A DNA stretch of 64,000 bases from Candidatus Jordarchaeia archaeon (GTDB lineage Archaea > Asgardarchaeota > Jordiarchaeia > Jordiarchaeales > Jordiarchaeaceae): the NCBI GenBank assembly GCA_029856435.1, contig JAHQXB010000063.1:1-64000 (forward strand). The letters are read 5' to 3'. The position numbers and the translations under genes were made by a program. A model generated the notes under the pieces. That model searched no databases and had not been told where the DNA came from. It saw only the letters and a program-made list of their open reading frames with translations. Shown here piece by piece: positions 4,950 to 52,889 of the stretch; the stretch's first letter is position 1, and each line of letters opens with the position of its first letter.

Positions 4950-5468
4950 CTACTTGATTTCCATAATTTTTTTCTTGAAATCCTCTAAATCTACTTCGTA
5001 GATTGTCCGGCTCTTAAGTGTGATGATATTTTTGTCTATCCCTATGTATCCGTTTTCTTCCAAGGTTTTGAGGTTTCTTCGGAGCTGTTCTTCGCCCATC
5101 TTATCCTTAAGAAAATTTAGCTCTTCCCTCTCTATTGGGGCTCCTTTTTCGAGAATCAAAGCCAAGATTACTGCCAGTGTGGCAGTTACAGACCTATCTA
5201 CCAGAAAACAGGGAACTAGAGACGAACCTAAATCGTTTACTGCAATTACCCATCTTCTTTCTGGGGAAATGTATTTTAATTGGAGACCGATTTCATTCAA
5301 CTTTTCTTGAAGCGTGTTTAGAAGGTCTTGGAGGTGGGACTCGTCCTCCTCATCTGAGAGGAATATTTCGCGTAATTCTTCAGATGTGATTCCTGGCTTT
5401 TTACCGTGACTCAGGAGAAGGAGTAGGGAGAGTAGCTGGAGTTCTGTTGACATTTTAGGCTTCCTCAA
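4950..5468 (-). CDS. ScpB-like / kite tandem winged-helix subunit
   Basis: Size, position after kleisin-like gene, two wHTH-like halves (GITSEELREIF..LQEKLNEIGLQL; LRRNLKTLEENGYI). Confidence 0.6.
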   Translation of the reverse strand: MRKPKMSTELQLLSLLLLLSHGKKPGITSEELREIFLSDEEDESHLQDLLNTLQEKLNEIGLQLKYISPERRWVIAVNDLGSSLVPCFLVDRSVTATLAVILALILEKGAPIEREELNFLKDKMGEEQLRRNLKTLEENGYIGIDKNIITLKSRTIYEVDLEDFKKKIMEIK

Positions 5469-6087
5469 GAAATCTTTTATTTCCTTCAGATACTACCTTA
5501 ATTTTTTTGCTGTCCAAAAGGAAGGTGAAGGCCATAAATTTTCTAACCGTCTCCTCCCAGTTTTCACCACGAATAATTCTGGAGAGTTCGGCTTTCTTTG
5601 ACTCCCGCAGAAGATTTAGAAAATTTTTCACAATATCCATAAAGGGGGGTTCATCATAAAAGTTTATAGTGTCTGCTTTTACTTCAGCCTTTATTTCCGG
5701 AGGGAACTCTAAGGAGGTATATTCGCGCCCCCTCAGAAATTGGAGGGAGTAGATTAGACCGGCTGTGGTTATGAGGTTCAATTTTACTATGGGGCGTATT
5801 TTGATAAGATTTGAGAGAGAGTCTATGTCGAGTCCTTGAAGCTTATTTTTGAGGTTCTTACCAGTTGGAAAATCGGGAAAAAGTAGTTTATATGCTTCAT
5901 TAATTTTTTTTTCATGAACCATAACAAGACCATATAGGGCCTCTGAGTGCTCTAATATTTTAGAATCTGCATTGGAGAGGTTTTCCTGGAGCTCGACTGC
6001 GTACTCATAGATGGGAATACTGAAAGGATTAGTGTCACCTCTTAGAACATTCATACACTCTTTGATAATCTCAGAGATTTTTTTCAT
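5455..6087 (-). CDS. ScpA-like kleisin
   Basis: N-terminal NPFSIPIYEY..HSEALYGL and C-terminal VRKFMAFTFLLDSKKIKV resemble kleisin N- and C-domains; follows SMC; start moved to MKKISEII to avoid overlap. Confidence 0.65.
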   Translation of the reverse strand: MKKISEIIKECMNVLRGDTNPFSIPIYEYAVELQENLSNADSKILEHSEALYGLVMVHEKKINEAYKLLFPDFPTGKNLKNKLQGLDIDSLSNLIKIRPIVKLNLITTAGLIYSLQFLRGREYTSLEFPPEIKAEVKADTINFYDEPPFMDIVKNFLNLLRESKKAELSRIIRGENWEETVRKFMAFTFLLDSKKIKVVSEGNKRFLEEA

Positions 6088-6094
6088 AGGAGCT

Positions 6095-8590
6095 TCAGCT
6101 CTTCTCAAAATCCTTTTTTTGCAGAATCTCCACTCTAGATTTACCTTCCGCGTCACGAAAAACTCCTATCACATGATCCGCTTGCTCAGCTATGCCTAAA
6201 CGCATAGGAGTGATGACAATATACTGAGAACGATTGGAGCAAGATTTAATCATCTTTGATATTGTTTCTTTGTTGGCAGGATCAGTGTGGATTCCAAATT
6301 CGTCAAAGAGATAAAATGGCGAAGGATGAACTCTTTGAAGCGCAAGTAGGAAGGCCATAGTTGTTACGTTTTTTTCTCCCCCTGAATGTTCACCAGTGTC
6401 CACAGATGTGGGTTCGTTCCCCCTAAAGCTTGAGTAAAGGTAAAGGTTTAGCTCCCCATTTTCTTGCTTTAACTCCACGAATCCCTTCCCATTAACTTCA
6501 CGGAGAATGTCAACAAAGTTTTCATTAAATTTAACCATCTTTGTCTGAAGCTCCTCTAAGAGCTTGGACTGCTCCTTTTTTAATGTGTCTATGAGAATAT
6601 CCCTTTCCTGTTCCAATTTTTTTGTTTGTTCTTCTATGTCTTTTACTGTTCCCTCATATTCTTCGAAGGATTTTAGATCCTCTTCTGAGTACTCCTTTAG
6701 GGCTTCCAGTTTTGCCTCTACCCTAATAATTTTCTGGTTTAGTTTAGGTAGCGGCAGAATTTCTTCTTCAGTGGGGCGAAGGATTGGATCTATCAGCTGG
6801 ATTTTGGGCTCCAAATCTTTTAATTCTTCGCGTAGTGAATTTGACCGGTTTCGGTAGAATTGTAAATCTCCTTCCAAGTTGTTCAGGCGAGCTTTGATCT
6901 CGGCAATCTCTTGCATTAAATAATCACGTGTTTTAGTCAGCGAGTTTAATTCGCGTTTCAATTCAACACGGTTACTAATAATATCCTTCTCCCTTTGTAC
7001 CAGTTCCTGAATTTTATCGGTGAGACCCTTCAGCTGTTTTGAAGTTTCTAATCTACCATCTGCGGTTTCACTGTTTTCGTTGCTGCTAGCACTAAATGAG
7101 CCGATGATTGAGAACTGTGTAGGGATATCAATGTTAAAGTAGCCTACGGGCGAATAAGTGATTCTGGTGCCATTAAGGGTTACCACAGGAGTATTATACA
7201 TTTTAGCATTAACCAATGCGTGCTCTAAGTTATCCACAATAAGATATCTTGATAGAATTTCTTCCACCATTGGGCGTAGAGCCTCGGGAACGGTTACCAT
7301 ATTTACTGCCCAGTCAATGATACCTTCGCCGGGGAAAATAGGCTTACTAGGGGGTGACTTTTCATATTTTTCAGTTACACAGTAGATGCGGGTTCTAATC
7401 CCCTTCGAGATTAATTTATCATGCAGGAGTATACAGTCTTGGCGGTTGGTGGTAACAAAGCTTTCTAGAACTCTTCTCCCAAGGGCGGATTCTATTGCCA
7501 AGTTGTATCTTGAATCTTTGATTTTCAAGTGTTCCACTATAGGCCCAATTACTTCACCTTTGATGCTGAGTGATTGTATTATTCGCTTAACCCTAGAAAT
7601 ATTTGAAGCATATGTTTTGGGGGTTAAGGTCTTATAATCTTCTTTTAAGGAGAGCACATAAGCCTGCAATCTTGATTTTTCCTCAGTGAGCTGTAATTTT
7701 TTCTGGTAAATTTCTTCCCTTTCGGCTGAAAGATTCTCCTCCCTTCTTTCCAAGCTGGAAATTTTTGTGCATGTAGAGTGGTATTCTTGTTCCTTCTTTT
7801 CAAGGGTTGAGTTGAGTTCATTTATTTCGATATTTAGTTTTTCTAATTTTTCTGTGGCTTGGGATAGCTCCATTTCTTTGTGATATTTTTGGGAGAAGGG
7901 GTACATGGCCTCCAGTTTATTTTTCATTTTTTCCAATTCAACCTTTTCCAAATATTTCTCTTTTCGAGTTTTTCGCAGTTTAAGCTCCTTTCTGGCTTCT
8001 CTCAATCTATTAGTCAAACCTTTAAGTTTCTCACTGTTTTCCCTGAGTTTTTCCCTACTTTCTTCGATTCTTTTCAGCACTGGGCCTAGCCCCAAAGCAT
8101 CTACAAAGAAATATGCGCGCTCATTTGGCTTGGCTTTAATAAGGTCGTTTACTTGTCCCTGGTGAATAGTTACCAAGGGATTGTCTGGATTTATACCCGC
8201 CTCGGATAGCAACGTCCTCAAATTACGCAGGTGAATGGGTTTACCGTTTAGCCGGAATAGGGACTGTTTTCCCCTACGAAGAATGCGTGTTATTTCGACC
8301 ATGTCGTCGTCTAAATCTTTGAAAATTTTTTCTCCAAAGCTATTTTTGTTTTCTATTAATATGGATATTCTAGCAGCCTTTTCTCCGTGGCGTATATACC
8401 TATCAAGCAATCTATGTCTCTCCCTTGCCAAAGATCCCAAAGCGATTCTAATTGCAGATATGATGGAAGTTTTTCCCGCCCCGTTACGACCCACTATTAC
8501 ATTGAAGGTGGGTGAAATGGGTATCGAAATATTATCATAGGACATAAAGTTATTGAGTTTTAACTCCGTAATCACGTTCTCGCCCCCCAC
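6095..8590 (-). CDS. smc: SMC-family ATPase, Smc5/6-like, short coiled-coil arms
   Basis: Walker A GRNGAGKT, hinge VIGPIVEHLKIKD..AIESALG, signature HSGGEK, Walker B PFYLFDEF; 831 aa. Confidence 0.9.
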   Translation of the reverse strand: MGGENVITELKLNNFMSYDNISIPISPTFNVIVGRNGAGKTSIISAIRIALGSLARERHRLLDRYIRHGEKAARISILIENKNSFGEKIFKDLDDDMVEITRILRRGKQSLFRLNGKPIHLRNLRTLLSEAGINPDNPLVTIHQGQVNDLIKAKPNERAYFFVDALGLGPVLKRIEESREKLRENSEKLKGLTNRLREARKELKLRKTRKEKYLEKVELEKMKNKLEAMYPFSQKYHKEMELSQATEKLEKLNIEINELNSTLEKKEQEYHSTCTKISSLERREENLSAEREEIYQKKLQLTEEKSRLQAYVLSLKEDYKTLTPKTYASNISRVKRIIQSLSIKGEVIGPIVEHLKIKDSRYNLAIESALGRRVLESFVTTNRQDCILLHDKLISKGIRTRIYCVTEKYEKSPPSKPIFPGEGIIDWAVNMVTVPEALRPMVEEILSRYLIVDNLEHALVNAKMYNTPVVTLNGTRITYSPVGYFNIDIPTQFSIIGSFSASSNENSETADGRLETSKQLKGLTDKIQELVQREKDIISNRVELKRELNSLTKTRDYLMQEIAEIKARLNNLEGDLQFYRNRSNSLREELKDLEPKIQLIDPILRPTEEEILPLPKLNQKIIRVEAKLEALKEYSEEDLKSFEEYEGTVKDIEEQTKKLEQERDILIDTLKKEQSKLLEELQTKMVKFNENFVDILREVNGKGFVELKQENGELNLYLYSSFRGNEPTSVDTGEHSGGEKNVTTMAFLLALQRVHPSPFYLFDEFGIHTDPANKETISKMIKSCSNRSQYIVITPMRLGIAEQADHVIGVFRDAEGKSRVEILQKKDFEKS

Positions 8591-9963
8591 ATCTTCTGCA
8601 TTGTTTCCTGAACTCTCTGAAATCTTTCTCGCTTCTCCTTTAAAACTTCAATACTTTTTTCGGGATTGGAAGTTAAAAATTCAAAATTTTTAGCGATAAC
8701 AATCTCATCCTTTGACAATGAGTCCCCACTTTTTAGCTTTGTAAGGGTTAAGAGTAGCTTTTCATATTTTTTATCGTCAGTTACAACATCCTGAATGAGA
8801 GCTTGGTGAAGATACTCCTCCCTTTGCAAGTTTCTTTTTTGTAACTGTTTTTCCTTTATTCTCTGCGATATCTCCGTTCTCATGGAGTGAGCTATTTCCA
8901 AAAGTATGTCTGTTGTCAATATTTTTTTGCGTCTTTTCTCCAGTAAAACCACAGCTCTGGAGACGAGATTTTCAAGATCCGCCCCAGAAAAGTTTTCCGT
9001 AGCCTCAGAAACCTGAGGGAAATCTATGTTCTTCTCATACAAGAGGCGAGACAGCAATACATGTAAAATCTCCGTTCTTGCTCTAACATCAGGTAGGGGA
9101 ACAGAGATTACATCGTCAAACCTTGTCCAAACCGCTGCGTCCAACAAATCCGGCCTGTTGGTAGCTGCGATGACTAGTATGGAGTGGTCGCACAGATTGG
9201 TGGAGTCAAGTTCGTCCAATAAGGCGGAAAGGACGGAGGACTGGTTTAAATCTCTGCTTTGCGCCAGAGCATCAAAATTATCTATAAAAAGAATGAGAGG
9301 CTTATTGTTTAAGTCTTCGCGGATGAATTTGAAAATTGCACGAATACCTAGAACAGTATCCTCTGGTGACCCTGTTGCCAAACTCTTTAGAAAATCGACT
9401 ATTGGGACTTTAGACTCTTTGGCTAGGGCATAGACTAGAGTGGTCTTTCCAGTTCCAGGCCTCCCATATACAAGCAATTTGCCACCCAGCTTAATCCCCT
9501 TAGATTTAAGCTCCGAGATTTTTCTCAGAAAAGAAGCATAATCGTTCAACTGTGCCTTCACATCTTCATAGTTCCCAAGGTGGTCAAATGTGAACGTTAA
9601 TTCTTCGGGTTTCTTTATTATAACTTGAAAATCGATCTCCTTTTCACGTTTAACTTTTTGTGTTAAAAGGATTGTTGCTGCTAACGCCCCAACAACTGAG
9701 TCAAACTTCTGGGATAAATTTCTTTTATCTTCCTCTAAACCGTTAATCCTATTAGTGAGGGTACTTATGCTCTTCTTAACAGTTTCTATTACTTCCCCAC
9801 TCAGACCACTAGCACCCTCCTTTAGGGAGTCTAATTCTTCTTTTAAACTGTTTATACTGTTTACAACATCCTCCAAGGCGTCCACAGTTGGAACATCTGC
9901 CAAGGGCGTTGAAATGTAGTCTACTCGTATTCTTCTACTCTTTGGCATGATGCATAACCCCAA
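8572..9963 (-). CDS. AAA+ ATPase with N-terminal coiled coil and atypical Walker B (start possibly 9948)
   Basis: GRPGTGKT, LFIDNFD, SRH AATNRPDLLDAA; overlaps the smc start. Confidence 0.85.
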   Translation of the reverse strand: MGLCIMPKSRRIRVDYISTPLADVPTVDALEDVVNSINSLKEELDSLKEGASGLSGEVIETVKKSISTLTNRINGLEEDKRNLSQKFDSVVGALAATILLTQKVKREKEIDFQVIIKKPEELTFTFDHLGNYEDVKAQLNDYASFLRKISELKSKGIKLGGKLLVYGRPGTGKTTLVYALAKESKVPIVDFLKSLATGSPEDTVLGIRAIFKFIREDLNNKPLILFIDNFDALAQSRDLNQSSVLSALLDELDSTNLCDHSILVIAATNRPDLLDAAVWTRFDDVISVPLPDVRARTEILHVLLSRLLYEKNIDFPQVSEATENFSGADLENLVSRAVVLLEKRRKKILTTDILLEIAHSMRTEISQRIKEKQLQKRNLQREEYLHQALIQDVVTDDKKYEKLLLTLTKLKSGDSLSKDEIVIAKNFEFLTSNPEKSIEVLKEKRERFQRVQETMQKMWGART

Positions 9964-10073
9964 TTTTAGTAAGAGGCACCGCTCCCAGAAAATGTTTTAA
10001 CTATTTAGTGTTTTAATGTATAATCAACAAGGGGTACTAAAATATTTCTAGTGGATTTTAAAAGGTAGGAGAA

Positions 10074-10298
10074 ATGAGCGAAAAATATATCACTTTGACC
10101 AAGCACTTCGTCGGAAAATGGAAATGGAACTGTCTAATCTGCTCCCTTGATATCGATCCAGCTAAAGACGCGGGAAACGTGTACCAGTGCGGCAAATGTC
10201 GTTACATGATGCACCTAGATGAACTCAAAAACTGGATGGCCTCCCGGAACACTAAAAGGTGTCCCTTGTGTGGATGTGAAGTTGAAATCAAGAGCTAA
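10074..10298 (+). CDS. Small stand-alone RING-variant zinc-finger protein
   Basis: CLIC..CGKC..MHLDE..W..CPLC. Confidence 0.75.
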   Translation: MSEKYITLTKHFVGKWKWNCLICSLDIDPAKDAGNVYQCGKCRYMMHLDELKNWMASRNTKRCPLCGCEVEIKS

Positions 10299-10325
10299 AG
10301 ATTCTAAATTTTATGTTTAGGATTC

Positions 10326-11033
10326 CTATTTCTGAAGGATAGCGAATTTTCCACAGGTGGGACATTTTCCATTCAGTCTGACGTAGGCTTTTATGCAGCC
10401 CTCATGGAAGAGAACCGAGCAAGATTCACACTTCCAAATTGCTACCACATTGTTAAGGACTGTTTTGCAAAGTCCGCAGATTCCGCTTTTGGGAAGCAGT
10501 AGAGGGCGCAGATAAGCGATAGATGCGAGGTTTAAAGCTTCTGCAAAGGGGCAATAGGTGTGGAAAACGCCTGAACCAGCTTGACAGCCTATTCCACCCA
10601 ACTGCTTCCACTCGCTCTTAAGCTCAAATACGTTTCCGACGCGGGTAATAACCCAACAAGGTTCCTTACAAAATCTTGAAAAAATTTTTTTGTAGCCATT
10701 TAGGAATCCTCTTGAAATAGCTTGTGTTGTCGCTGCTAGTTCTTCATCACGAGAATTTCTGAATAAAACATCTCGATTCACGAGATGACCCAATTCGTGA
10801 GCCATAACAGCAGCAACTTCATCTTCGCTCCATCCCCTCAATTTTTCACTTATAGTAATAAAATGTTCCCTCACAACGCTTTTCCTCCCTTTTCTCAACT
10901 CAACGGTTTTAACACTCGCAAGCATATCCTTCTTAAGTTCACCAAACTTGGTTTTGAATTTTTCATTTTTTAAATCAGGGAACGCAGGCAGCACCAAATT
11001 TCTCAGAATCCATCCCAAATAATGCTCACTCAT
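10326..11033 (-). CDS. HExxH zinc-peptidase-like domain fused to C4HC3 RING
   Basis: VMAHELGHL; C-terminal CGLC..CESC..FHEGC..CPTC. Confidence 0.75.
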   Translation of the reverse strand: MSEHYLGWILRNLVLPAFPDLKNEKFKTKFGELKKDMLASVKTVELRKGRKSVVREHFITISEKLRGWSEDEVAAVMAHELGHLVNRDVLFRNSRDEELAATTQAISRGFLNGYKKIFSRFCKEPCWVITRVGNVFELKSEWKQLGGIGCQAGSGVFHTYCPFAEALNLASIAYLRPLLLPKSGICGLCKTVLNNVVAIWKCESCSVLFHEGCIKAYVRLNGKCPTCGKFAILQK

Positions 11034-11109
11034 TAGAACAGCTCCCGAAGACCAAACAGATAAAAAGCAAATAAGAAAGGTAAAACAGCATTTAAAAAGA
11101 ATTCCGAAT

Positions 11110-11213
11110 ATACAATATAGACATTCCAGTTAATTTTTCCTTTTCGCTTCCAGAAAATATGGTTTTTTTCCGCCTTTTTTGGGAAAGAAGCCTTAAATAA
11201 CCCCGGGTTAAGG
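11110..11213 (-). repeat. Dispersed ~100-bp repeat, copy 2
   Basis: Reverse complement closely matches 159-265; lies in a divergent intergenic region. Confidence 0.9.
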
Positions 11214-11327
11214 ATAGGTTTAGGAAAAAATTAATGAGAAACTCTATAAATACAAGTAAATTCTGGAATTCAAAGCCATAAAAATTTCAGAGTTTATGGA
11301 GAGTTTGAGGGCAGAAGATGGTTAAAG

Positions 11328-12188
11328 ATGGGAGATATAGATTATTATAAGCGTTTAACATTAGAAGCTAAACTGATTAAACAAAAGTACAAGACACTTG
11401 GAACCGGCAGAGAAGGAAAACTCTCCAAATGGTCGGGCTACATCACAGTTAGAAATCGCCCCCTTTTTGTTTCAATTCAGATACCTGAAGATTTCCCTAA
11501 CAAGCCACCCCTCATAAAGGCCAGCGGTGTTCAAACTAATTTAAATGAGGAGTTAGGCGTTCTCAAAAATTGGAGACAAGAATACAACGTAACAGATGTT
11601 ATAGACGCTCTGAGAAAATATTTAGAAGAAAAAATAGATGCAGATAAGACCACACCAAGGAGGCTGGCAGAAGAACTTCAAAGAATGATAGAAAATTCAC
11701 ATTTACTTATGAGTAGATCCGAGTATGTGTCCATTAGACTCACGAGGGACACCTCCAGCCTAAGAGAATACAGATTAATGGTTGTATTCCTAAAATACTC
11801 AAAACCAAGACTTAATGGAAAAGTAATAAACATTAAACTAGTTCTCCCAGAAGAATTTCCAACGGTGAAACCAAGAATAGAAATATCCAGCGGCAAAGAA
11901 GAAATAGATTTGAATTTGGAAAAATATTTAGAGAATCTACCGCCTATGAGGAATTGGACTCCGGATAAGCACCTATTTGAAGTTGCATTATCCATTTTAG
12001 AATTTTTTAGTAATTTTGCGATGGCAGTTTGCCCAATTTGCCTAAACAAAATTACTGCACAGGAATATGATAGCGCCATCAAATGTATAAACCCCAGATG
12101 CCGGAGCTTGTATCACAAAAATTGCTTCGAAGGCTGGATAAGACAAGGATACAAAAGAGAATGTGTGTTTTGTGACACACCAGTATAA
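11328..12188 (+). CDS. Tandem UBC/RWD-like domains plus C4HC3 RING (FANCL-like E3 architecture)
   Basis: IQIPEDFPNKPP and LVLPEEFPTVKP motifs, each followed by a W-containing helix start, no catalytic Cys; CPIC..CINPRC..YHKNC..W..CVFC. Confidence 0.75.
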   Translation: MGDIDYYKRLTLEAKLIKQKYKTLGTGREGKLSKWSGYITVRNRPLFVSIQIPEDFPNKPPLIKASGVQTNLNEELGVLKNWRQEYNVTDVIDALRKYLEEKIDADKTTPRRLAEELQRMIENSHLLMSRSEYVSIRLTRDTSSLREYRLMVVFLKYSKPRLNGKVINIKLVLPEEFPTVKPRIEISSGKEEIDLNLEKYLENLPPMRNWTPDKHLFEVALSILEFFSNFAMAVCPICLNKITAQEYDSAIKCINPRCRSLYHKNCFEGWIRQGYKRECVFCDTPV

Positions 12189-12221
12189 ATCAATAAGACA
12201 TCAAGATGCCAAGAGTTTAAC

Positions 12222-13373
12222 CTATTTTATGAAGTTTAACTTGAAGGTTTTAGGGGTGGCAAGATATTTTGATATTACAAATATATTTTCGCCAGACTTC
12301 AATCCAACATCCTTAAGCCTGAGTTCTTCCCCCAAGGGGAAGTGCTCCCTGTATGCTATTTCGGGGTCGGGAATGGCATATCTTTGGGAAATCTGTACTT
12401 TGATGTCAAAAACCGTAGCATTTGAATCCACGTTCATTTGCTGTGCTTCGTCTCCCAACCCGCAGAGCCAACAGTCAGCTCTTCGCGTCCGAGTCAAGCA
12501 ATCGAGACCCCCGCTGATTCCGTTATATCGAAACATCTCCACACTTCTAGGTAAGCCGAGCAAAACTTTTATTGCCTCTTGGGACTGAATCCCCGCTATT
12601 ATGGCGTTCGTAGTTAGGATGGCTGGTAATTTTGGAGCTATCTTTTCCTGTATTTCTTTTGCGAGTTCCTCAGAAACTCCTGGAACTGAGACCAAGTTTT
12701 TAAGTTTGGCGTATTTTAGATCAAGCTCAGTCTTGTAGCCTCTTAAAAATAACTCTTCAACAATATCAAGTGTTAAACCTTTTATTCCGTACTTTTCCAA
12801 CTCGTTGAATAAATCGCGGGGCTTGCGTCTTCTCAAAGAACACCAAACTCTCTGCTTCTCTTTGGGAGGATAACACTCATAACAGGGAGTCACGTAAGGG
12901 ATTATTACACGTACGTGACCAAAGAAACCATGTGTACCAGCATCAATAAAGGGTTTATTTAGAGACACCGCCACTGAGTTCAGATAACGGCGGCCTTCAA
13001 AATTATCCAAACTACTCAGAAAAATATCAGCTTTCCGATACACATCAATACTAATACACTCTATATTATCATAGTAAGATTCAACTTCTACGTTGGGATT
13101 CATTTCAGTCAAGTTACGTTTAGCAGCCACAACTTTGGGTGAACCGATATCCTGGTCTCTATACAACATTTGCCTACTTAGATTGGAGAGCTCCACAACA
13201 TCATTATCTATTATAATTAATTTCCCAACACCCATAAGAATCAAATTTTTTGCCGATTCGCAACCCAGAGCACCCATACCCGCAATTAAAACAGTAGAAT
13301 TCATCAGTTTATCCTGATTCCAAGCAACACCCATAACATTCACAAGTTTTTGTCTATGATAACGACCCTCCAT
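12222..13373 (-). CDS. Ubiquitin-activating enzyme E1-like (ThiF/UBA) with HhH insert and C-terminal Ubl domain
   Basis: GMGALGCE, DNDVVELSNLSRQ, PCYEC..WCSL, PAILTTNAIIAG, CWLC, terminal ubiquitin-fold-like segment. Confidence 0.9.
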   Translation of the reverse strand: MEGRYHRQKLVNVMGVAWNQDKLMNSTVLIAGMGALGCESAKNLILMGVGKLIIIDNDVVELSNLSRQMLYRDQDIGSPKVVAAKRNLTEMNPNVEVESYYDNIECISIDVYRKADIFLSSLDNFEGRRYLNSVAVSLNKPFIDAGTHGFFGHVRVIIPYVTPCYECYPPKEKQRVWCSLRRRKPRDLFNELEKYGIKGLTLDIVEELFLRGYKTELDLKYAKLKNLVSVPGVSEELAKEIQEKIAPKLPAILTTNAIIAGIQSQEAIKVLLGLPRSVEMFRYNGISGGLDCLTRTRRADCWLCGLGDEAQQMNVDSNATVFDIKVQISQRYAIPDPEIAYREHFPLGEELRLKDVGLKSGENIFVISKYLATPKTFKLNFIK

Positions 13374-13402
13374 GCCAAAACCCTCACAGAAGTTTCACTT
13401 TT

Positions 13403-13882
13403 CTACCAACCCTGGTTGGCGTAGTTTAGAACATATTCCCGGGCTATTTCAAGAAATTTTTGCGGTTCCCGTCTCTGCTGGTAAGCCGCCTGTGAATTAA
13501 GGGGATTATCAGGGTTAGGATTGTTCAGCAGCGTCCTCAGAGCTTCTATAACCCCAACAATGTTTGTCTGTGGCTTCCACTCTCTCCCCAATATTGCTAT
13601 ACAAACCGAAAAAGGCGGCCGATCACCGAAAGCAATATTAGGATGCCATATCCGAGTGTGCCACAAAACTTCCGGTGGCTCAAAAGGAAAACGCCGAGTA
13701 ATCTTAATCTCAACCTTAAACATTCCCCCTTCGTAGGGGGAACCGGCGGAACCGTATATTATTCCGCGCCAATGAGTTAACTTACCATTCACCGAATGGA
13801 AGGTAGGCTCCTCCCTCCTCATCCGCTGAGCCTCTAATGCGAGCCTAGCCCAGTAGCGTTCCGAATCAAGTTGAGCAGGCGT
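13403..13882 (-). CDS. Ubiquitin-conjugating enzyme E2 (active-site Cys present; apparent ACG start)
   Basis: SPYEGGMF, FPFEPP, WHPNI, VCIAIL..W, PNPDNPLN; frame extends 20 codons upstream of ATG 13822 to an ACG at 13882 preceded by AGGGGGT. Confidence 0.9.
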   Translation of the reverse strand, partial: TPAQLDSERYWARLALEAQRMRREEPTFHSVNGKLTHWRGIIYGSAGSPYEGGMFKVEIKITRRFPFEPPEVLWHTRIWHPNIAFGDRPPFSVCIAILGREWKPQTNIVGVIEALRTLLNNPNPDNPLNSQAAYQQRREPQKFLEIAREYVLNYANQGW

Positions 13883-13975
13883 TTAGGAACCCCCTGAAGA
13901 ATTATGTTCTAAGCTTCCATGGTAAGCTAAGACCATGTCGGAATTTTGTGTCGAATAGGAAATCCTTAAATGTTT

Positions 13976-14221
13976 CTAGAAGCCACCTTCAATATCAGAA
14001 CTGACATAGAATATTTTATCGCCATCTTGAACTCCAACACTTCCCAGAGGGGCATTATCATCTTGTAGTTCAATACCCCTACAGGTTAGGGTGAGAGCAC
14101 TTGCTGGAACTCCACATTGTTTAGCCACTCTCTCTTTCAGAGACTTCACACTTTCCTCTGGGTCTACCTCCATCTCAAAGGGGGCTTCCTGACCGATAGC
14201 AGGTACAATTCGGATGAGCAT
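13976..14221 (-). CDS. Ubiquitin-like modifier with C-terminal GG-F
   Basis: Beta-grasp pattern (VDPEESVKSLKERVA..GVP..L..L..G.EL.D..L..GV.DGD) ending IEGGF. Confidence 0.9.
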   Translation of the reverse strand: MLIRIVPAIGQEAPFEMEVDPEESVKSLKERVAKQCGVPASALTLTCRGIELQDDNAPLGSVGVQDGDKIFYVSSDIEGGF

Positions 14222-14555
14222 TGTTTAACCACCAACAACTTAACTGGTAAGTGTAAATCTTATTATATGTATTCAGAGGAAGATGAACAATTTAAAGTCT
14301 TCTCATAGAAATCTAGCTACTAGAAAGACAACCTAGATCACGAGAAAGACAACCTAGTTTACGGACAGCAACTTCGAATGAAGTACAACCTATAATAAGA
14401 GATGTTCTAATCCGCATTTCCCATTCCTAAAAAGTGAATCTATTTGTGGGTTTCCAGCCGCAAGTATTTGTGAAAAGTAAAAGGGACGTGAAGCGTGAGT
14501 CTATCTGTCCTTTTTTAACGAAAACTAGTTGTGAAGTCTTTTGAAAATTTGTTAT

Positions 14556-15245
14556 TTATTTGGTGAGCCAGCCATATTTTTTGTATGTTTTAATTCCTTC
14601 TTTTGATTTTAGGAATTGAATGAATTTTTTCGCCGTGTCTTTGTTTTTGCAGAAGGCGGTTGCTGCTATTAGGGTGCTTCTGTAAACTTGTGCTTCTCTG
14701 GGGATTTCAATTGCGTCGAATGTTTTGGGGTGTAGAGCTTTGTAGGTATTCCATCCGAATGCCACATCCACCTTTTTTCTGACTATGGAGCCTAGTAGTT
14801 CTCCGCATCCATCGGCGAAAAGTGTTATGTTTTTTTGTATTTCTTGTGTTAGAGCAGTTTTGCTGGCTATTTCGTCCCAGACTCCCTTTAGACTGTCTAC
14901 CGTAGATATGGCGATTTTGATGTCTTTTTTTGTTAAATCATGGAGGGATCTTATTTTTTTGGGGTTACCTTTCTGTGTTAGGATTACTGATCTTCTGTAG
15001 CCTAGGATGCTTCTGGTTTCTCTGTCTATTAAATTATTTTTTTGTAGTTCATCCATTATGTATGCTGCTCCACAGGTAAAAACGTCGCAGAGTCCAGTTT
15101 CGATTTTGGGAATTATTTCCGATGGCAGCCCTATGGTATATTTGAGTTCCACGCCACATATTTCTTGAAATCTTTTTCCAGAAATTTTTAGGGGGGTGGC
15201 AACATCACAGCAAGAACAAATATTTAAAACCTGCTTCTGAGACAA
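14556..15245 (-). CDS. ModA-like (molybdate/tungstate-type) substrate-binding domain protein, no signal peptide
   Basis: CDVFTCGAAYIMDEL, GNPKKIRSLHDL, KIAIS, VDVAFGW, AKKFIQFLKSKEG..KKYGW. Confidence 0.65.
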   Translation of the reverse strand: MSQKQVLNICSCCDVATPLKISGKRFQEICGVELKYTIGLPSEIIPKIETGLCDVFTCGAAYIMDELQKNNLIDRETRSILGYRRSVILTQKGNPKKIRSLHDLTKKDIKIAISTVDSLKGVWDEIASKTALTQEIQKNITLFADGCGELLGSIVRKKVDVAFGWNTYKALHPKTFDAIEIPREAQVYRSTLIAATAFCKNKDTAKKFIQFLKSKEGIKTYKKYGWLTK

Positions 15246-15420
15246 ATATTTTCTCCTCCCTTTTACGGAATGTCAGAGTTATCAATAGTTTTATAATAAA
15301 ATCTAATAAAATATGCCTCATATGTGGAAATAATGGATGATGGTGTAGAGTATTTGTGGCTCTGTTATTTGAGAAAAGAAAGTGGCGCGTCCGCTTGGGA
15401 TTGCTCGGTGGGGAAAACTT

Positions 15421-16086
15421 ATGGTTGATGTTAGGATTTATCCTTTGACTCTTGCTAAGATTATTAGGCATAGTACAATGTTTTCGGGTATAGAAGTGGC
15501 AGGTGTTTTGATTGGGAGATTAGTGAATGGTGTAGTTGAGATTTCGGATTCGGATACCGGTCCGCAGATTGGTACAACGGGCCATGTGAAGCTGGCGAGA
15601 TATGTGGCGCCACTCATTGCTGAGAAGCTTCACAGGCAGGGAAGAAGTGATTACATTGTTGGGTGGTATCACTCACACCCGGGATTTGGCTGTTTTCTTT
15701 CTCCAATTGATGTAGACACCCAATCAGGACTCCAGAAGATGTTTTCCAAATGCGTAGCGTTGGTCGTTGACCCTTATGAGTTCATTATTTCGGGTCGCCC
15801 ACGTGATGCAAAAATCGAAATGTTTAGAGTTCAAGATGGTAGAATTGTTACACTGGAATATGAGGTTGTTTTTGAGACTGATAAGATTATCAGAAACTTT
15901 ATTGATAACCTAGAGAGAGGCGAGGATCAATACGTAACTTCTTTAGACAAGATTAGGTTAGAGTTTTATGAATGGAACAGAAAGTTGGAAGAAAAAGTAG
16001 GTTTTGTTACTGAGGAAATCAAACAAATCCGTGAAGCACTGGCAAACATTCTTGAAGCACTAAAGCAAGGTAGACGAATATCATAA
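15421..16086 (+). CDS. JAB1/MPN+ (JAMM) metalloprotease, Rpn11-like
   Basis: EVAGVLIG, VGWYHSHPGFGCFLSPIDVDTQ, VALVVDP. Confidence 0.92.
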   Translation: MVDVRIYPLTLAKIIRHSTMFSGIEVAGVLIGRLVNGVVEISDSDTGPQIGTTGHVKLARYVAPLIAEKLHRQGRSDYIVGWYHSHPGFGCFLSPIDVDTQSGLQKMFSKCVALVVDPYEFIISGRPRDAKIEMFRVQDGRIVTLEYEVVFETDKIIRNFIDNLERGEDQYVTSLDKIRLEFYEWNRKLEEKVGFVTEEIKQIREALANILEALKQGRRIS

Positions 16087-18606: not shown

Positions 18607-19260
18607 TTATTTTATCTTGACTCTTTTACCTGTGACCATATAGTAGATTCTTGCTGCCAAGTTACAGGAGTGGTCTGCTATTCTTTCTAGGTATCTTGCT
18701 ATGAATAGGAGGTAGGCGGCATCAGATATTCCGCTTGGCTTCTCTATTACTAGGGTGATTAGTTCTCTAAATATTTGTTCGAAGAGTCCGTCTACTAGGT
18801 CGTCGTCCTCTGAGAGTTTCATTAAATTATCGACTCTTCTTGCGATGAAGGCGTCCAAGGATTTCCTTATCATTCCCTGTGCGATTTCTGACATGCGGGG
18901 AATATCTATTAGTGGCTTGAAAAAGGGTTTTCCAGCTGTTTTTATGGCTATTTCTGCGATGTCTCCGGAATAGTCGCTTATTCGGTCTATGTCTGTTATG
19001 ATTTTTAAGCAGGTTACAATAAAGCGTAAGTCTTCTGCCATGGGTTGCTGAAGTGCTAATAGTTCCATGCAGATTCTCTCTATTTCAAATTCTAGGTCGT
19101 CAACCTTCTTTTCTATCTCTATAACCCTTTGGGCTTGTTCTACGTCTTGTTTTTTGAGAGCGTTTACAGATTCTCGAACCGTCACAATTGACAGCTCACC
19201 CATATCGACAACCATGTCTGCTAATTTTTTTAGTTGGTTCTGGTAACGTAGCCTCAACAT
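18607..19260 (-). CDS. phoU: Phosphate signalling protein PhoU
   Basis: LALQQPMAEDLRFI, DIDRISDY, DDDLVD, YLERIADH; follows pstB. Confidence 0.92.
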   Translation of the reverse strand: MLRLRYQNQLKKLADMVVDMGELSIVTVRESVNALKKQDVEQAQRVIEIEKKVDDLEFEIERICMELLALQQPMAEDLRFIVTCLKIITDIDRISDYSGDIAEIAIKTAGKPFFKPLIDIPRMSEIAQGMIRKSLDAFIARRVDNLMKLSEDDDLVDGLFEQIFRELITLVIEKPSGISDAAYLLFIARYLERIADHSCNLAARIYYMVTGKRVKIK

Positions 19261-19306
19261 TTTCTTTTCAGGTTTTAAAGTTTCTTCCTTCAATGCTATC
19301 CTTCCT

Positions 19307-20149
19307 TTAGCCGAACCTCCCCGTAATGTAATCCCTTGTGCGTTCTTCGCGGGGGTTTTCGAAAATTTTTTCGGTTTCATCATATTCTATAAGTTCGCCT
19401 AGATACATAAAGGCTGTGTATTGAGAAACTCGCGCGGCCTGCTGCATGTTGTGGGTTACTATAACGACCGTGATTTTTTCTTTGAGATCCCATATAAGGT
19501 CTTCGATTTTTGATGTGGCAATGGGGTCGAGTGCTGAGCACGGCTCATCCATTAAAAGAACTTCCGGATTTATAGATAGTGCCCTAGCGATGCAGAGTCT
19601 TTGCTGCTGACCGCCAGAGAGTTCGTATGCATTTACATTTAACCTGTCTTTAACCTCGTCCCATAGGGCAGCCATTTTTAAACTATCTTCCACAATTTTG
19701 TCTAATTCCTTACTATTGTTTACTCCGTGAATTCTGGGGCCATAGGCAACATTGTCATATATGGACATGGGGAAGGGATTAGGTTTTTGGAAAACCATTC
19801 CCACCTTTTCTCTGATAGCTACCACATCGGCGCTATAATCATAGATGTTTTCGCCGTCAAGAAGCACCTCTCCCTCAACCCTAGCCCCATCAAGATCAAC
19901 CAACCTATTGAATGATCTTATTAATGTGGTTTTACCACACCCTGAAGGGCCAATTATTGCGGTGACCTTATTTTTTAATATTTTTAGGTTTATGTTTTTT
20001 AGGACATGATTTTTACCAAACCATAGATTTAGGTCTTTAACCTCTATTTTAACGTTCCTTGTTCTAGTCCTTTTTTCTTTAACTACACTGTCCTCTCTAT
20101 TATTTAATGCCGATAATTTGTTTAACACAGATAACATCATTCTCACCAA
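19307..20149 (-). CDS. pstB: Phosphate ABC transporter ATPase
   Basis: [54 protein letters not shown]. Confidence 0.96.
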
Positions 20150-21051
20150 CCCTTCCTCCTTTTTAAACCTTTATTTCGAATATACATTGCAAAAATGACG
20201 AATAGGAGAACCAGCCCCACAAGCACAAGAGCTGTTCCAAACTCGTAGGGTTTATTGACTGCTGCAAAAGGACTTGTTGTCGCCTCATAGTACAGGTGAT
20301 ATGTCAAAGCCATAACCGGCTGAAAGACATTTGTGGGGTAAAGGCTGCTTTGGTAGAAGACGGCTGCCGCGAAAAGTATGGCGGCAGTCTCGCCGGCGAC
20401 CCGCCCAATCCCCAGTATTGTACCTGTGGAGATTCCCGGCGCTGCTGCGGGTAGAACGGTTTTGGTAATGGTTTCCCACTTTGTGGCCCCTAGAGCTAGG
20501 CTTGCCTCTCGAAAGCTTTTCGGTATGGTCTTCAAGGCTTCCTCTGTTGACTTAACTATTATGGGGAGAGCCATGAACCCTAACACAAGCCAGCCTGAGA
20601 GGAGAGAGACACCGAAGTCTAACTGTTTGCAGAAGAAGGCGAATGCAAAGAGACCGAACACTATCGAGGGAACACCCGCCAAGTTACTAATGGTCTGGAT
20701 TATGAAAGATTTCAGTCGACCCTCGTGCAGGTACTCATTAATGTAGATAGCTGAAAGAATTCCCAAGGGTACAGCTATACAGATAGCACCCGATACTAGA
20801 GCAAGAGTTCCAAATATCATGGGAAGTATCCCCCCATAAGAGAGAGACAAACCTAGTGGTGTGCCATAGAGCATCCTTGCTCCGGGTGTGCCAGTTATAA
20901 ACTCCCAGTTGATTACTTGTGCACCGTTAATTATAATTACGCCCATAATTAGGATGAACGAAGCTAAAATTAGGAGGGTGGGAATGCTGAAAAGTATCTC
21001 GCCGAGACCCACTCCCTTAGTAACAGCGGTTAACTCTTTTTCGACCTTCAC
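20143..21051 (-). CDS. pstA: Phosphate ABC transporter permease
   Basis: [31 protein letters not shown]. Confidence 0.93.
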
Positions 21052-22163
21052 TACCTCACTCCTCCAAACTTCTTTTTGAATCTAGTGTTTATTGTATCTG
21101 CTACGAAATTAACAATGTAGGTGATTATGAAAAGCACCAGTCCAACACCGAAGAGGGCGCTGTAGTGTAGGGTGCCCACTGCAGTTTCTCCCATCTCTGC
21201 CGCTATGGCTGCAGTCATAGGTTTAACAGAGGTAAAGAAAAGTTCCAAGGATAGGGGGGGAATGTTTGCTACGCCTCCACAAACCATAAGCACAGCCATC
21301 GTTTCCCCAAGCGCCCTACCAACAGCCAAAATAATACTCGCAGTAATTCCAGAAATAGCAGCGGGCAGAAGAACTTTACGTACTGTTTGGAAGTGTGTGG
21401 CTCCAAGGGCGAAAGAGGCTTCCTTGTAAGATTGGGGAACGGAGCTTATTGCGTCCTCGCTAATGGAAACAATGGTGGGAAGAATCATAATTGAGAGAAT
21501 AATTGCCCCCGCGAGGGCTGTCTGACCAGATCTAAGATTGAAAATATTGGCAATGTATGGAACAAGAACTGCAAGCCCCACAAAACCATAAACTACGGAT
21601 GGTATCCCTGCCAGAAGTTCAATTACTGGCTTTACGACATTTCTAATTCTTGGGGGGCAGTACTCCGATAGGTGAATTGCAGAGAGAATACCAATGGGCA
21701 CAGCTATAAGTAGAGCACCGCCAACGACGGTGACGGTTCCAGCTATAAGTGGTAAAATTCCGAATTCGTAGCTACTTGGATCCCAAGTTGAGCCTGAAAC
21801 AAAGTTTACAAAACCAATAACAATGTTTCCATTTGCCTGAATTAAAGCATGAAGCCACAAATAGTCAGATAAACCCATTTCGTTAAGAAGAAGAGTAATA
21901 TACAGTCCAATCTGCCAGTAGCCCATCTCCCGAATAATGGGAAGCCCCTGCTGCACTAGGAAAAAAAGAATGAGCATTGTGATGATAAAGCTAGAAAGAG
22001 CACAGAGACCAGTAAGTCCTTCAGGAGAGAACACCCTCTTTAGAAGCTCCACAACCTTTAGTTGCAATATGTCGATTCTGGGAGTCGCAAATTTCATAAA
22101 ACTAGAAACAAAGTTTTTGAGAATTCCCTGTAAACGTTTTCCCAGAATCATAACACCACCCAT
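21051..22163 (-). CDS. pstC: Phosphate ABC transporter permease
   Basis: ELLAGIPSVVYG, MILPTIVSISEDA, RALGETMAVLMV. Confidence 0.93.
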   Translation of the reverse strand: MGGVMILGKRLQGILKNFVSSFMKFATPRIDILQLKVVELLKRVFSPEGLTGLCALSSFIITMLILFFLVQQGLPIIREMGYWQIGLYITLLLNEMGLSDYLWLHALIQANGNIVIGFVNFVSGSTWDPSSYEFGILPLIAGTVTVVGGALLIAVPIGILSAIHLSEYCPPRIRNVVKPVIELLAGIPSVVYGFVGLAVLVPYIANIFNLRSGQTALAGAIILSIMILPTIVSISEDAISSVPQSYKEASFALGATHFQTVRKVLLPAAISGITASIILAVGRALGETMAVLMVCGGVANIPPLSLELFFTSVKPMTAAIAAEMGETAVGTLHYSALFGVGLVLFIITYIVNFVADTINTRFKKKFGGVR

Positions 22164-26396: not shown

Positions 26397-26915
26397 ATGG
26401 GTGAGGAACCCCGGGTTGTTAAAATTTTGGTCACAGGACCTTACTCCTCTGGAAAAAGTACAGTGGTCAGCAAACTCTGCAAAGATGCAGTAAGCATAGA
26501 TGCGCTTCAGACAACTGTTGGTTTTGATTTTGGTTCCAGATACGAGGAAGTCAATTTTTTGGATTTGAAGATTTTTGGAACGCCCGGACAAGAGAGGTTC
26601 AAATTTTTACAAGAGATTTTAGCTAAGGGGAGTGCGGGTATTTTGTTAGTGGTGGATAGTACTTCTCCTGAAAATGTGGATTTAGCGAAAAATATTCTAG
26701 TGAGGATAAGGAAGGAGCTTTCAAAGAAGGTACCTGTTGTTATTCTTGCTAACAAACAGGATTTGGTAGGGGCCTTAAGCCCCGAGGAAGTTAGAAAAAA
26801 GATGGGAGTTTCGCGCAATGTCCCAGTCATAGGCACCGTGGCTCCAGAATCCATTGGTCTAAAAGAAGCTATTACAACTTTAATCAAACTAATGTTAAAG
26901 GCGGAAAAACAGTAG
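26397..26915 (+). CDS. Small Ras-superfamily (Rab-like/MglA-type) GTPase
   Basis: G1 GPYSSGKS, TTVGFDFG, G3 GTPGQERF, G4 NKQD. Confidence 0.9.
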   Translation: MGEEPRVVKILVTGPYSSGKSTVVSKLCKDAVSIDALQTTVGFDFGSRYEEVNFLDLKIFGTPGQERFKFLQEILAKGSAGILLVVDSTSPENVDLAKNILVRIRKELSKKVPVVILANKQDLVGALSPEEVRKKMGVSRNVPVIGTVAPESIGLKEAITTLIKLMLKAEKQ

Positions 26916-26993
26916 ACGTAAATTAGAACTATTACTTAACTGTAAATTTGTTTTATGATGGTTTTTATTGTGTAATTCTACTGTTTTTGGATT

Positions 26994-27692: not shown

Positions 27693-27864
27693 GCGTATCC
27701 ATCCAGAGTTTAAAAGTATATTTGAAAACAGCTGTTTTAAGCAGTATTAACATTTTTACGCTTCAAATAGCGGTTCTTAAAATATTTTTTAATGTCCATA
27801 TTAATAATTGTAAATATTTTCCACGTATATTGGTTTAGCTAGTTTTTAATTAAAGGCTAGATGT

Positions 27865-28395: not shown

Positions 28396-28654
28396 CCAAA
28401 TTTAGCTCTTTGAAATAAAAGAGCCACTTAAAGTTTATTAAGTAATCCCAAAAAAATATATCCTGACGCTTACGCAAAAATAAATTCTAGCTATTGGATT
28501 TTAGTTAAATATTTTATTTACTTGTGTTAACATATGTTTTTTCGGGGTACTAATTTACACTAGTTGGGCTTTTTTTATGCCCACATCAAAAGTTTTAATA
28601 TGTTAGGTTAGTAGATATTCTGTAGAGAAAAAGTGAAAGGGGCTGTTAAAAGCG

Positions 28655-29449: not shown

Positions 29450-29472
29450 TCCGCGAGGATGGAGGATAAAAA

Positions 29473-30141: not shown

Positions 30142-30159
30142 AAGAGGAGCCATAAAAAG

Positions 30160-52850: not shown

Positions 52851-52889
52851 AAATTTACACCCCGTTAGAAACTGTAGGGTGAGAAATTT

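Follow-up and report, generated by a model that had tools for sequence, protein, structure and literature searches.

An Smc5/6-type operon and a ubiquitin gene cluster meet at a putative fusion gene in a Freyarchaeial lineage of Asgard archaea

The DNA analysed here, hereafter the window, is a stretch of 64,000 nucleotides from Candidatus Jordarchaeia archaeon (contig JAHQXB010000063.1, our C81, of the 3.5-Mb assembly GCA_029856435.1), whose close relatives carry the source names Candidatus Freyarchaeota, Freyarchaeum and Jordarchaeum. At 4950-16086 it holds an operon for a structural maintenance of chromosomes (SMC) complex of the Smc5/6-related kind directly beside a ubiquitin conjugation cluster, and the gene at their junction, the first of the SMC operon, encodes, judged by its homologies, a fusion in which a ubiquitin-cluster protein is joined to one from SMC operons. 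It is this joint that is new here; both halves, SMC operon and ubiquitin cluster, are of kinds already in print, and a literature search found no paper joining kleisin, kite, Asgard and AAA+. In eukaryotes, ubiquitin and SUMO control SMC complexes. We know of no prokaryotic SMC complex under ubiquitin or SUMO control, and a literature search likewise found none. One fused gene at this locus belongs to two systems that are each already seen as archaeal antecedents of eukaryotic machinery, and among the hints at a functional link that genomes alone can give, gene fusion is the strongest kind.

Gene content of the locus

Genes were called from the open reading frame (ORF) listing and a Pfam search of the 12 genes at 4950-16086, and all 12 genes named in an earlier reading of the letters alone (the sequence-only reading) are present (Table 1). 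ORFs, Pfam and kleisin and kite profiles bear out its minus-strand operon of kite, kleisin, SMC and AAA genes, and ORFs and Pfam recover its three RING genes, its E1-E2-ubiquitin run, its JAMM protease and the ModA-like gene that interrupts them. It had further described the operon and a complete ubiquitin cascade as physically joined; the connection proved tighter than claimed, as it runs through the coiled-coil (CC)-AAA fusion gene. The stop codon of that gene (TGA, 8574-8572) overlaps a start codon of the SMC gene (GTG 8575-8573, or a GTG at 8590), and the SMC/kleisin and kleisin/kite junctions likewise abut or overlap, so that AAA, SMC, kleisin and kite form one tight unit. Contigs of a ~92-93% identical relative, from two runs labelled metatranscriptomic and flagged 'probably DNA', have the same arrangement (one covers 4950-9191, another 8841-11034) and say nothing on transcription. 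Rfam gave no match at E<=0.1 over 9900-15450.

The SMC protein has its motifs intact, with Walker A, the signature SGGEK and a Walker B DE. It is one of 2 SMC genes in its genome, the other being a canonical frame of 1189 amino acids (aa) on contig C5 that is followed by ORFs of 226 and 191 aa. The nearest relatives of the window copy outside the lineage are SMC-like proteins of 560-690 aa from Bathyarchaeia, Nitrososphaeria, Hadarchaeota and others (hereafter TACK-type), which have no SMC_hinge match on record and which, in 58 of 79 loci, are followed by same-strand ORFs of ~265 aa and ~190 aa. In an SMC tree made without eukaryotic sequences, the window copy groups with these hinge-less proteins, apart from the canonical SMCs (SH-aLRT 87), among which the C5 copy falls. 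Against the PDB, a profile of Freyarchaeial and TACK SMCs (A6) has yeast Smc5 at the top (1.4e-70), followed by Pyrococcus Smc (4.4e-64) and Smc6 (8.8e-63), and the single window sequence finds Pyrococcus Smc first (9.5e-40) and Smc5 at 6.1e-21.

Kleisin and kite emerge from profile comparisons. Taken alone, the kleisin had no match in Pfam or in PDB single-sequence searches, the kite had weak winged-helix matches only and an empty single-sequence PDB search, and none of the archaeal kleisins and kites submitted to Pfam was assigned to a ScpA, ScpB or Nse family. Profiles were therefore compared in three ways. TACK-only profiles, made from operon neighbours with the Freyarchaeia rows left out (kleisin 46 rows, kite 43 rows), were searched against 54,740 ORFs, comprising all own-genome ORFs and the fetched loci, and the sole own-genome match of each was the window kleisin (1.4e-7) and the window kite (1.1e-11), respectively. 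Against the PDB, kleisin profile A3 matches Nse4 (5.3e-6), human EID3/NSE4 (2.1e-5) and ScpA (0.067), and kite profile A4 matches the MAGE/Nse3 chain 7dg2_C (3.6e-5) and Nse1 (0.057). The third comparison was with class c, the Asgard SMCs of 1115-1161 aa in the SMC tree (13 loci in families f2, f7, f8 and f9): hhalign pairs the window kleisin with class-c kleisins (95.6%, E 1.1e-8), with no similarity to canonical ones, and the window kite with class-c kites (97.1%, E 7.7e-11) versus 0.4% for canonical ScpB-position proteins.

An Nse4-like kleisin is thus encoded next to the SMC gene and an Nse1/3-like kite next to the kleisin, and both uphold the Smc5/6-like label of the sequence-only reading, with the SMC nearest Smc5 by profile and nearest Pyrococcus Smc as a single sequence; assignment of the window operon to the Smc5/6-related kind already in print is supported by these profile matches. 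The kite has no zinc-finger match in Pfam and no RING, the RING genes being separate. Over whole genomes (E<=1e-3) kite profile A4 finds only the 6 genomes of the genus and 3 weak matches in family f12, and this search missed the class-c kites that profile-profile comparison links. A complex prediction of two SMC heads plus kleisin with AAA residues 121-463 returned 'no answer' (score 0.00, mark 0.32), which is no evidence either way.

The adjoining genes have the makeup of a ubiquitin operon: a GG-ended ubiquitin, a ThiF-type E1, a UBC-type E2 with a catalytic Cys, a small RING protein and a JAMM protease are all predicted, in one cluster. As the ubiquitin ends GG-F, C-terminal processing would be needed. 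The comparison sample comprised 61 Asgard genomes of 20 families (6 of the genomes belonging to the window's genus, g1), and 49 of the 61 have UQ_con-family matches. Around such matches 16 other Asgard loci were fetched and searched by tblastn with the window proteins, which found E2 in all 16, E1 in 11, and ubiquitin and a gene like the small RING gene of the window (RING74) in several; RING74 relatives stand beside ubiquitin, E2 or E1 in 7 of the 16. The window E1 is 30-46% identical to the E1s of other Asgard ubiquitin clusters. The solute-binding-protein gene (SBP_bac_11, a molybdate/tungstate-type fold) is kept at the same place in 4/4 fetched genomes of the genus and was not seen by tblastn in the 16 other loci. 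Two copies of a 15-nt direct repeat, CTAGGTTGTCTTTCT (minus strand), lie 21 nt apart at 14322-14357, ~100 nt upstream of the ubiquitin start, and may be a regulator site.

Two larger RING proteins complete the cluster. One is kept at 86-96% identity in 4/4 genus genomes, and its M48 match covers residues 69-108 only. The other carries two RWD/UBC-like domains ahead of its RING, and 1.84 billion representatives include only 9 that are related to it at E<=1e-3. Its AlphaFold2 (AF2) model shows two UBC/RWD-like lobes and a RING (pLDDT 81.8), and Foldseek against the PDB places FANCL in the top three positions (7kzp_L, 7kzp_M and 9a0j_L; 4.3e-7 to 4.3e-6), then Listerin, then E2s, at low TM-scores of 0.25-0.39. 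We file it as FANCL-like in architecture and not as a member of that family, because 286 aa leave no room for an ELF domain and because the TM-scores are low. The literature on FANCL and Asgard, in the text available to the search, holds a mention of an Asgard RWD-like domain only. In genome G005 (L020 14025-14576) tblastn finds the second lobe and RING only (residues 103-286), and the 246-aa representative P0242 is shortened likewise; from this shortening, the first RWD lobe appears to be variable within the lineage.

The coiled-coil-AAA fusion gene

The start of the fusion gene is set at ATG 9948 by 11 orthologs, within a longer ORF of 8572-9963. The protein has an N-terminal hairpin and coiled coil, one Cdc48-D2-like AAA domain with its lid, and a conserved C-terminal tail, and its two parts have separate homologies. 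Within the first ~110 residues, an invariant hairpin motif (..I-x-T-P-x-x-x-V-P-T-V..) precedes a coiled coil, and the same hairpin motif stands at the start of free-standing proteins of 128-290 aa encoded inside other Asgard ubiquitin clusters. A profile of 10 such free-standing CC proteins, with no Freyarchaeial AAA protein included (A5), matches the N-terminus of the fusion at 9.6e-10 in its own genome and at the orthologous position in 6/6 genomes of the genus (~1e-9). The glycine of I-x-T-P-x-G-x-V-P-T-V is replaced by alanine in the fusion, with the rest of the motif present. Conservation is strict: the hairpin motif is invariant in 12/12 fusion orthologs, and mean pairwise identity is 88% over CC residues 6-50 versus 82% over the AAA domain. 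When the CC part (residues 1-115) was compared with 5.8 billion proteins of 251-802 aa, only 11 Freyarchaeia/Jordarchaeia orthologs were found and no other fusion partner was seen.

Free-standing CC genes were found with profile A5 in 40 of the 61 Asgard genomes. By hand count, 26 of the 40 have a UQ_con-family match no more than 5 kb away on their contig; the other 14 comprise 3 fragmented same-genus assemblies, 5 genomes of family f2, 1 of f8, 1 of f16 and 4 without any UQ_con match. The own genome also has a free CC copy beside a second E1-E2 pair, on contig C40. This second ubiquitin set (C40 196-3665; in G005, region L128 9080-12307) consists of E1 and E2, in G005 also ubiquitin; in G005, whose genome is complete, ~70 kb separate it from the first cluster. 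A divergent pair of small RING and CC genes, as formed by RING74 and the fusion gene across 125 bp, recurs in 4/16 other Asgard ubiquitin loci (L116, L121, L122 and L123). The AF2 model of a free-standing member is a beta-hairpin and one 125-residue helix (pLDDT 86). The CC family has no Pfam family, with coiled-coil noise only, and Foldseek gave nothing at E<=0.001, the best rows lying at E ~4-8 and including stathmin-like hairpin-plus-helix chains. Going by its description, the uncharacterised coiled-coil protein asCOG005522 that the consulted part of a preprint reports in clusters of ubiquitin, RING and UEV-Vps23 genes is probably the same family.

The second homology is to the SMC operons of other Asgard archaea. 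In 13/13 class-c loci the order is X-SMC-kleisin-kite, with an AAA-like 'X' gene first. A profile of the Freyarchaeial AAA proteins (A7) aligns with class-c X by hhalign (96.7%, E 4.6e-10, 284 columns; residues 147-444 against 44-343 of 355), and the alignment extends through the lid and the C-terminal tail. All four class-c X proteins read have lost Walker A, and the Freyarchaeial protein keeps it. Its AAA domain is nearest p97 D2 (PDB phmmer 2.7e-48), and single-domain AAA orthologs occur in Freyarchaeia/Jordarchaeia only. Walker A reads GRPGTGKT, Walker B is D-N and not D-E in 12/12 orthologs, and the pore loop is without an aromatic residue. An AAA+ protein with such Walker B and pore-loop losses should bind ATP and barely hydrolyse it, and because the Walker B glutamate is replaced by asparagine and the pore loop lacks an aromatic residue, the fusion protein would be expected to behave in this way.

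At the class-c loci of the sister family f2 (L130 7287-12480, L131 6450-11655 and L132 7774-11637), the SMC is preceded by a gene of only 172-276 aa, which keeps mainly the C-terminal tail of X (profile positions 280-369, E ~1e-20 to 1e-22); as this gene retains mainly that tail, the tail may be the part that matters for the SMC complex. Elsewhere in the window, at 51032-54011, genes for two Toprim-domain proteins of 141 and 410 aa precede that of a PRS2-type AAA ATPase (373 aa), which scores equal to the fusion protein against the class-c X profile.

Table 1. Features of the joined locus, of the ESCRT region of the same window and of the SMC-PriL arrays in families f17 and f19. Positions are those of the window unless a locus is named.
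Feature	Position	Strand	Evidence
Kite, Nse1/3 (MAGE)-like tandem winged-helix, 167 aa, no RING	4950..5453	-	profile evidence
Kleisin, Nse4-like, 210 aa from ATG 6087	5455..6087	-	profile evidence
Short SMC ATPase with hinge, ~half-length arms, 826-831 aa	6095..8590	-	SMC_N 1.8e-43, SMC_hinge 1.3e-13
CC-AAA fusion (putative), 458 aa, first gene of SMC operon	8572..9948	-	PF00004 6.7e-26
AAA, lid and tail part of fusion gene, common to accessory 'X' gene	8575..9489	-	hhalign
CC domain-coding part of fusion gene	9619..9948	-	CC profile A5
Divergent intergenic region, fusion gene/RING74, 125 bp, AT-rich	9949..10073	.	sequence read
Small RING finger protein RING74, 74 aa	10074..10298	+	zf-RING_16 2.1e-6, zf-RING_2 2.9e-5
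HExxH (M48-like) region with C-terminal RING, 235 aa	10326..11033	-	Peptidase_M48 5.1e-7, zf-RING_2 1.7e-4
Double RWD/UBC-like plus RING, predicted E3, 286 aa	11328..12188	+	zf-RING_2 1.1e-5, UQ_con 2.3e-5, RWD 9.6e-5, FANCL_C 2.3e-4
E1-like ubiquitin-activating enzyme, 383 aa	12222..13373	-	ThiF 1.2e-60
E2 ubiquitin-conjugating enzyme, 139 aa	13403..13822	-	UQ_con 3.4e-32; HPN...C active-site region
Ubiquitin, 81 aa, ends GG-F	13976..14221	-	Pfam ubiquitin 9.8e-12
Solute-binding-protein fold, ModA-like, 229 aa	14556..15245	-	SBP_bac_11 1.1e-34
JAMM/MPN+ isopeptidase, Rpn11-like	15382..16086	+	JAB 2.4e-17; E...HSHP...S..D motif
Small Ras/Arf-like GTPase	26397-26915
zf-AN1 protein	27865-28395
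UEV-Vps23-like	28655-29449		UQ_con 1.5e-17, UEV 1.4e-6
Vps28	29473-30141
EAP30/Vps22-36	30160-30894
Six-gene SMC-PriL-ThiF-CC array	L105 9680-16691
Six-gene SMC-PriL-ThiF-CC array	L106 3308-10197
Six-gene SMC-PriL-ThiF-CC array	L107 4253-11207
Six-gene SMC-PriL-ThiF-CC array	L139 4255-11164

Distribution and possible function of the joined locus

The short SMC occurs in 6/6 genomes of the genus and, at that similarity, in 0/55 other Asgard genomes. The same gene order was found in 4/4 other fetched genus genomes, at 74-93% SMC identity, and the most divergent of these, G005 (74% SMC identity), keeps the SMC/ubiquitin junction while differing in the flank past the kite. Across the sample the SMC-ubiquitin link is found in 1 of 20 Asgard families, and a different link occurs in families f17 and f19. 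In 4/4 genomes of these two families (G029, G039, G048 and G056), SMC, kleisin, kite, PriL, an E1-like ThiF gene and a CC gene form one array (Table 1), co-directional and with an SMC class of 1056-1077 aa first, except that the CC gene is inverted in G039. The kite of these arrays is Nse-type (hhalign 90%), and the ThiF protein (255-267 aa) has as its best own-genome match the E1 of the window cluster. No UQ_con match was found in these genomes (completeness 78-87%), and no ubiquitin-like small ORF ending in GG was seen beside the ThiF and CC genes. A Hel308-like helicase gene lies divergently upstream of the array in L105 and L107. In the f17/f19 arrays, E1-like and CC genes have come to lie beside an Nse-type SMC operon independently of the window locus.

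Several observations weigh against a functional link. Conservation within the genus is weak evidence, because the whole region is collinear, including the unrelated flanking genes for an ArsA-like protein, a 243-aa unknown protein and an aminotransferase. None of the 79 operons of the TACK/Hadarchaeota type has a match to E1, E2, ubiquitin, JAMM or RING within up to 10 kb, and none of the 16 other Asgard ubiquitin clusters has an SMC match within 10 kb. No ubiquitin genes were found at the 4 class-c loci scanned with the window proteins, the other 9 having been scanned only for SMC-operon parts and CC. The SMC-ubiquitin link is lineage-specific, and the synteny that the sequence-only reading had proposed to look for across Asgard genomes is accordingly seen throughout genus g1 and in none of these three sets of loci. 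The CC gene of family f2 is not near a UQ_con match in 5/5 genomes, and the tie of the CC family to ubiquitin is itself guilt by association only. A tail-only class-c X profile gave no significant match to the Freyarchaeial tail, the full-length class-c profile scores another own-genome AAA protein as well as the Freyarchaeial one, and a specific kinship of the Freyarchaeial AAA protein with class-c X is supported only by the profile-profile alignment.

In a rival explanation the two modules are neighbours and nothing more: a general-purpose tagging cluster and an independent SMC complex, brought together by a chance rearrangement that fused a CC gene to an SMC accessory ATPase, with the coiled coil kept as an oligomerisation stalk. 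Both modules occur apart in every other lineage examined, the second E1-E2-CC set on C40 indicates that this cluster type is not SMC-specific, and the genus collinearity reaches the unrelated flanks just named. Against it, the N-terminal hairpin motif, besides the heptad region, is invariant in all 12 fusion proteins, and in all four genomes of a second lineage, E1-like and CC genes independently accompany an Nse-type SMC operon; two juxtapositions among about a dozen CC-bearing families would be unlikely by chance, of the order of 1e-2 to 1e-3 by a rough post-hoc estimate with no formal test. We consider this explanation a substantial one that nevertheless falls well short of an even chance. 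If the link is fortuitous, the locus would still be a clean example of two published systems, and an ordinary one.

The reading that we prefer is a functional coupling of the SMC operon and the ubiquitin system in this lineage, and on the genomic evidence we hold its chances to be evenly balanced. The fusion, its conservation and the second lineage raise it from a guess to an even bet, and it is no more than that because the two modules are unlinked nearly everywhere else. As the most economical history, an X-SMC-kleisin-kite operon would have been joined to a ubiquitin-cluster CC gene in a Freyarchaeial ancestor, and the joined operon would have taken the place held by UEV-Vps23 in other lineages. 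The operon would then sit at the CC-gene position of the cluster, with the CC-X fusion transcribed divergently from the small RING gene. An SMC homodimer with kleisin and a kite dimer would form a short-armed, DNA-entrapping ring, on which the X part of the fusion would dock as in other Asgard lineages. The AAA domain, binding ATP and hardly hydrolysing it, could serve as a nucleotide-dependent adaptor or switch and not as an unfoldase, and the CC hairpin domain would connect the ring to the neighbouring ubiquitin machinery. There, JAMM would trim ubiquitin-GGF, E1 and E2 would charge ubiquitin, and the small RING, the FANCL-like double-RWD RING and the M48-RING proteins would act as E3s, with the outcome that subunits of the SMC complex or DNA-trapped proteins are ubiquitylated or recognised.

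A bolder form of this coupling makes the Freyarchaeia a case of prokaryotic ubiquitin-controlled genome maintenance, in which an SMC5/6-type ring is wired through the CC-AAA adaptor to a private E1-E2-E3 set with a FANCL-like ligase, ubiquitylation and then remodelling act on the ring or on proteins that it encounters on DNA, and the f17/f19 arrays are a reduced form of the same circuit. We regard this proposal as speculative and, taken whole, rather unlikely. If it were true, ubiquitin-type signalling at SMC complexes would predate eukaryotes, even if not as the direct ancestor of the Nse1 RING. As the parts are small, soluble-looking and encoded at one locus, the question of whether ubiquitin acted on SMC rings before eukaryotes could be addressed by reconstitution. 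Three components that have been little described also come to notice here, namely the AAA-type fourth gene of Asgard SMC5/6-type operons, the CC hairpin protein of Asgard ubiquitin clusters and an archaeal FANCL-like double-RWD RING ligase.

The sequence-only reading had gone further in two directions, and neither is favoured by the evidence. In the first, the locus would be a surviving precursor of eukaryotic Smc5/6-Nse in which ubiquitin-ligase activity was becoming attached to the SMC5/6 ring. Kleisin and kite, and by its profile also the SMC, are of Smc5/6 type, RING E3s, E2 and ubiquitin lie within 8 kb, and the host is an Asgard archaeon. However, the kite (167 aa) is without a RING and there is a single SMC gene at the locus, no Pfam match of SP-RING/Nse2 type or Nse5/6 type was found among the 12 genes (E<=0.01; divergent forms possible), the bridging AAA fusion has no counterpart in eukaryotic Smc5/6, and the link has the narrow family distribution given above. 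In addition, van Hooff et al. (bioRxiv 10.1101/2024.01.07.573240), in the part of the text consulted, treat the Nse1 RING as a eukaryotic addition absent from archaeal kites. We judge the precursor account very improbable.

In the second, which the sequence-only reading had put as an anti-plasmid module, the locus would be a defence island in which an SMC complex senses foreign DNA, like Wadjet, Lamassu or human Smc5/6, and is combined with ubiquitin-like conjugation of the sort known from bacterial Bil and CBASS Cap2/Cap3. SMC-based immunity is a known theme, and PADLOC matches the SMC protein to mad3 (2.5e-39), LmuB and JetC, the AAA protein to IetA (2.3e-41), the E1 to CBASS E1-E2 (1.6e-18) and the JAMM protein to JAB (1.8e-6). 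These matches, however, are generic ATPase, ThiF and JAB similarities; the kleisin, the kite, E2, ubiquitin and all three RING proteins have no PADLOC match, and PADLOC finds no partners of JetA/B/D or LmuA/C type. The locus is fixed in 6/6 genus genomes and has housekeeping genes around it, no obvious anomaly of base composition shows over the first 24 kb, and the related TACK operons lie beside the RNA polymerase operon and, in 13 loci, have an Lhr helicase gene downstream. A defence role is, in our estimate, as improbable as the precursor account. Matches to the solute-binding protein were likewise absent at the 79 TACK-type loci. At 21 of the 46 TACK-type loci with 3 kb of upstream sequence, a ~230-aa protein with no Pfam family is encoded divergently just upstream of the hinge-less SMC (e.g. 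L035 9025-9744).

Comparison with known systems

The AAA part of the fusion resembles Cdc48/p97 in that its nearest relative is p97 D2 and AAA_lid_3 is present. It differs in having a single AAA domain, no double-psi-barrel N domain, the D-N Walker B and the non-aromatic pore loop, and it thereby stands outside the family. The double-RWD RING protein is like FANCL in its two UBC/RWD-like lobes followed by a C-terminal RING and in its Pfam FANCL_C match, and unlike it in length (286 aa versus ~375), in having no N-terminal ELF domain and in that the RWD-RING of Listerin scores nearly equal. We know of no FANCD2/FANCI-type substrate in archaea.

With eukaryotic Smc5/6 the locus shares the kinds of core subunit (SMC, Nse4-type kleisin and MAGE/Nse-type kite) and closeness to ubiquitin-ligase genes. 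It has one SMC gene of this kind in place of Smc5 and Smc6 and one kite in place of Nse1 and Nse3, the kite profile having 1 own-genome match; its RING is not fused to the kite, an Nse2 or Nse5/6 match is missing from the Pfam search of the 12 genes, and an AAA partner is present.

Closer relatives are the archaeal 'SMC5/6-related' operons of SMC, kleisin and kite in TACK and Asgard archaea (Yoshinaga & Inagaki 2021, PMC8665677; van Hooff, Raas, Tromer & Eme, bioRxiv 10.1101/2024.01.07.573240; both cited from the parts of the text available). As in these, the window operon holds the second SMC of its genome, encodes SMC, Nse4-like kleisin and Nse1/3-like kite in that order and has a kite without a RING. 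Its SMC is short (831 aa) and yet has a hinge, whereas its nearest TACK relatives are 580-690 aa long with no SMC_hinge match on record and class-c proteins reach 1115-1161 aa. It is led by an AAA gene, and 'AAA' has 0 occurrences in the available part of the van Hooff et al. preprint. That AAA gene carries a ubiquitin-cluster domain, and the operon abuts a ubiquitin cascade. Compared with class-c operons, too, the window differs in that its AAA protein is fused to CC, stands beside ubiquitin genes and has lost only the Walker B Glu.

Finally, the ubiquitin half can be set beside the archaeal operons of E1, E2, small RING, ubiquitin and Rpn11 in Caldiarchaeum and Asgard (PMC5654768, PMC6043591) and the Asgard ubiquitin-ESCRT clusters (PMC9192718, bioRxiv 10.1101/2023.07.25.550441), as described in the consulted parts of these papers. 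It shares with them a ubiquitin with GG and a C-terminal extension, a ThiF-type E1, a UBC E2, a small RING and a JAMM protein, and a coiled-coil gene beside the RING gene, and it differs by two extra E3-like genes (M48-RING and double-RWD-RING) and the gene of solute-binding-protein fold. Its UEV-Vps23, Vps28 and EAP30 genes lie 12 kb away, at 28655-30894. The accessible text of a preprint describes ubiquitin and UEV-Vps23 as unlinked in Jord/LC30, and the window is in line with that. An ESCRT-I/II set occupies 26397-30894, ~10 kb beyond JAMM, with a phosphate ABC transporter/PhoU set between them (18607-22163); farther on, the 1000-aa ORF at 33378-36380 matches no Pfam family at E<=1e-4. Unlike the published clusters, which have UEV-Vps23 at this position, the window has a coiled-coil gene fused to an AAA ATPase, followed by the SMC genes.

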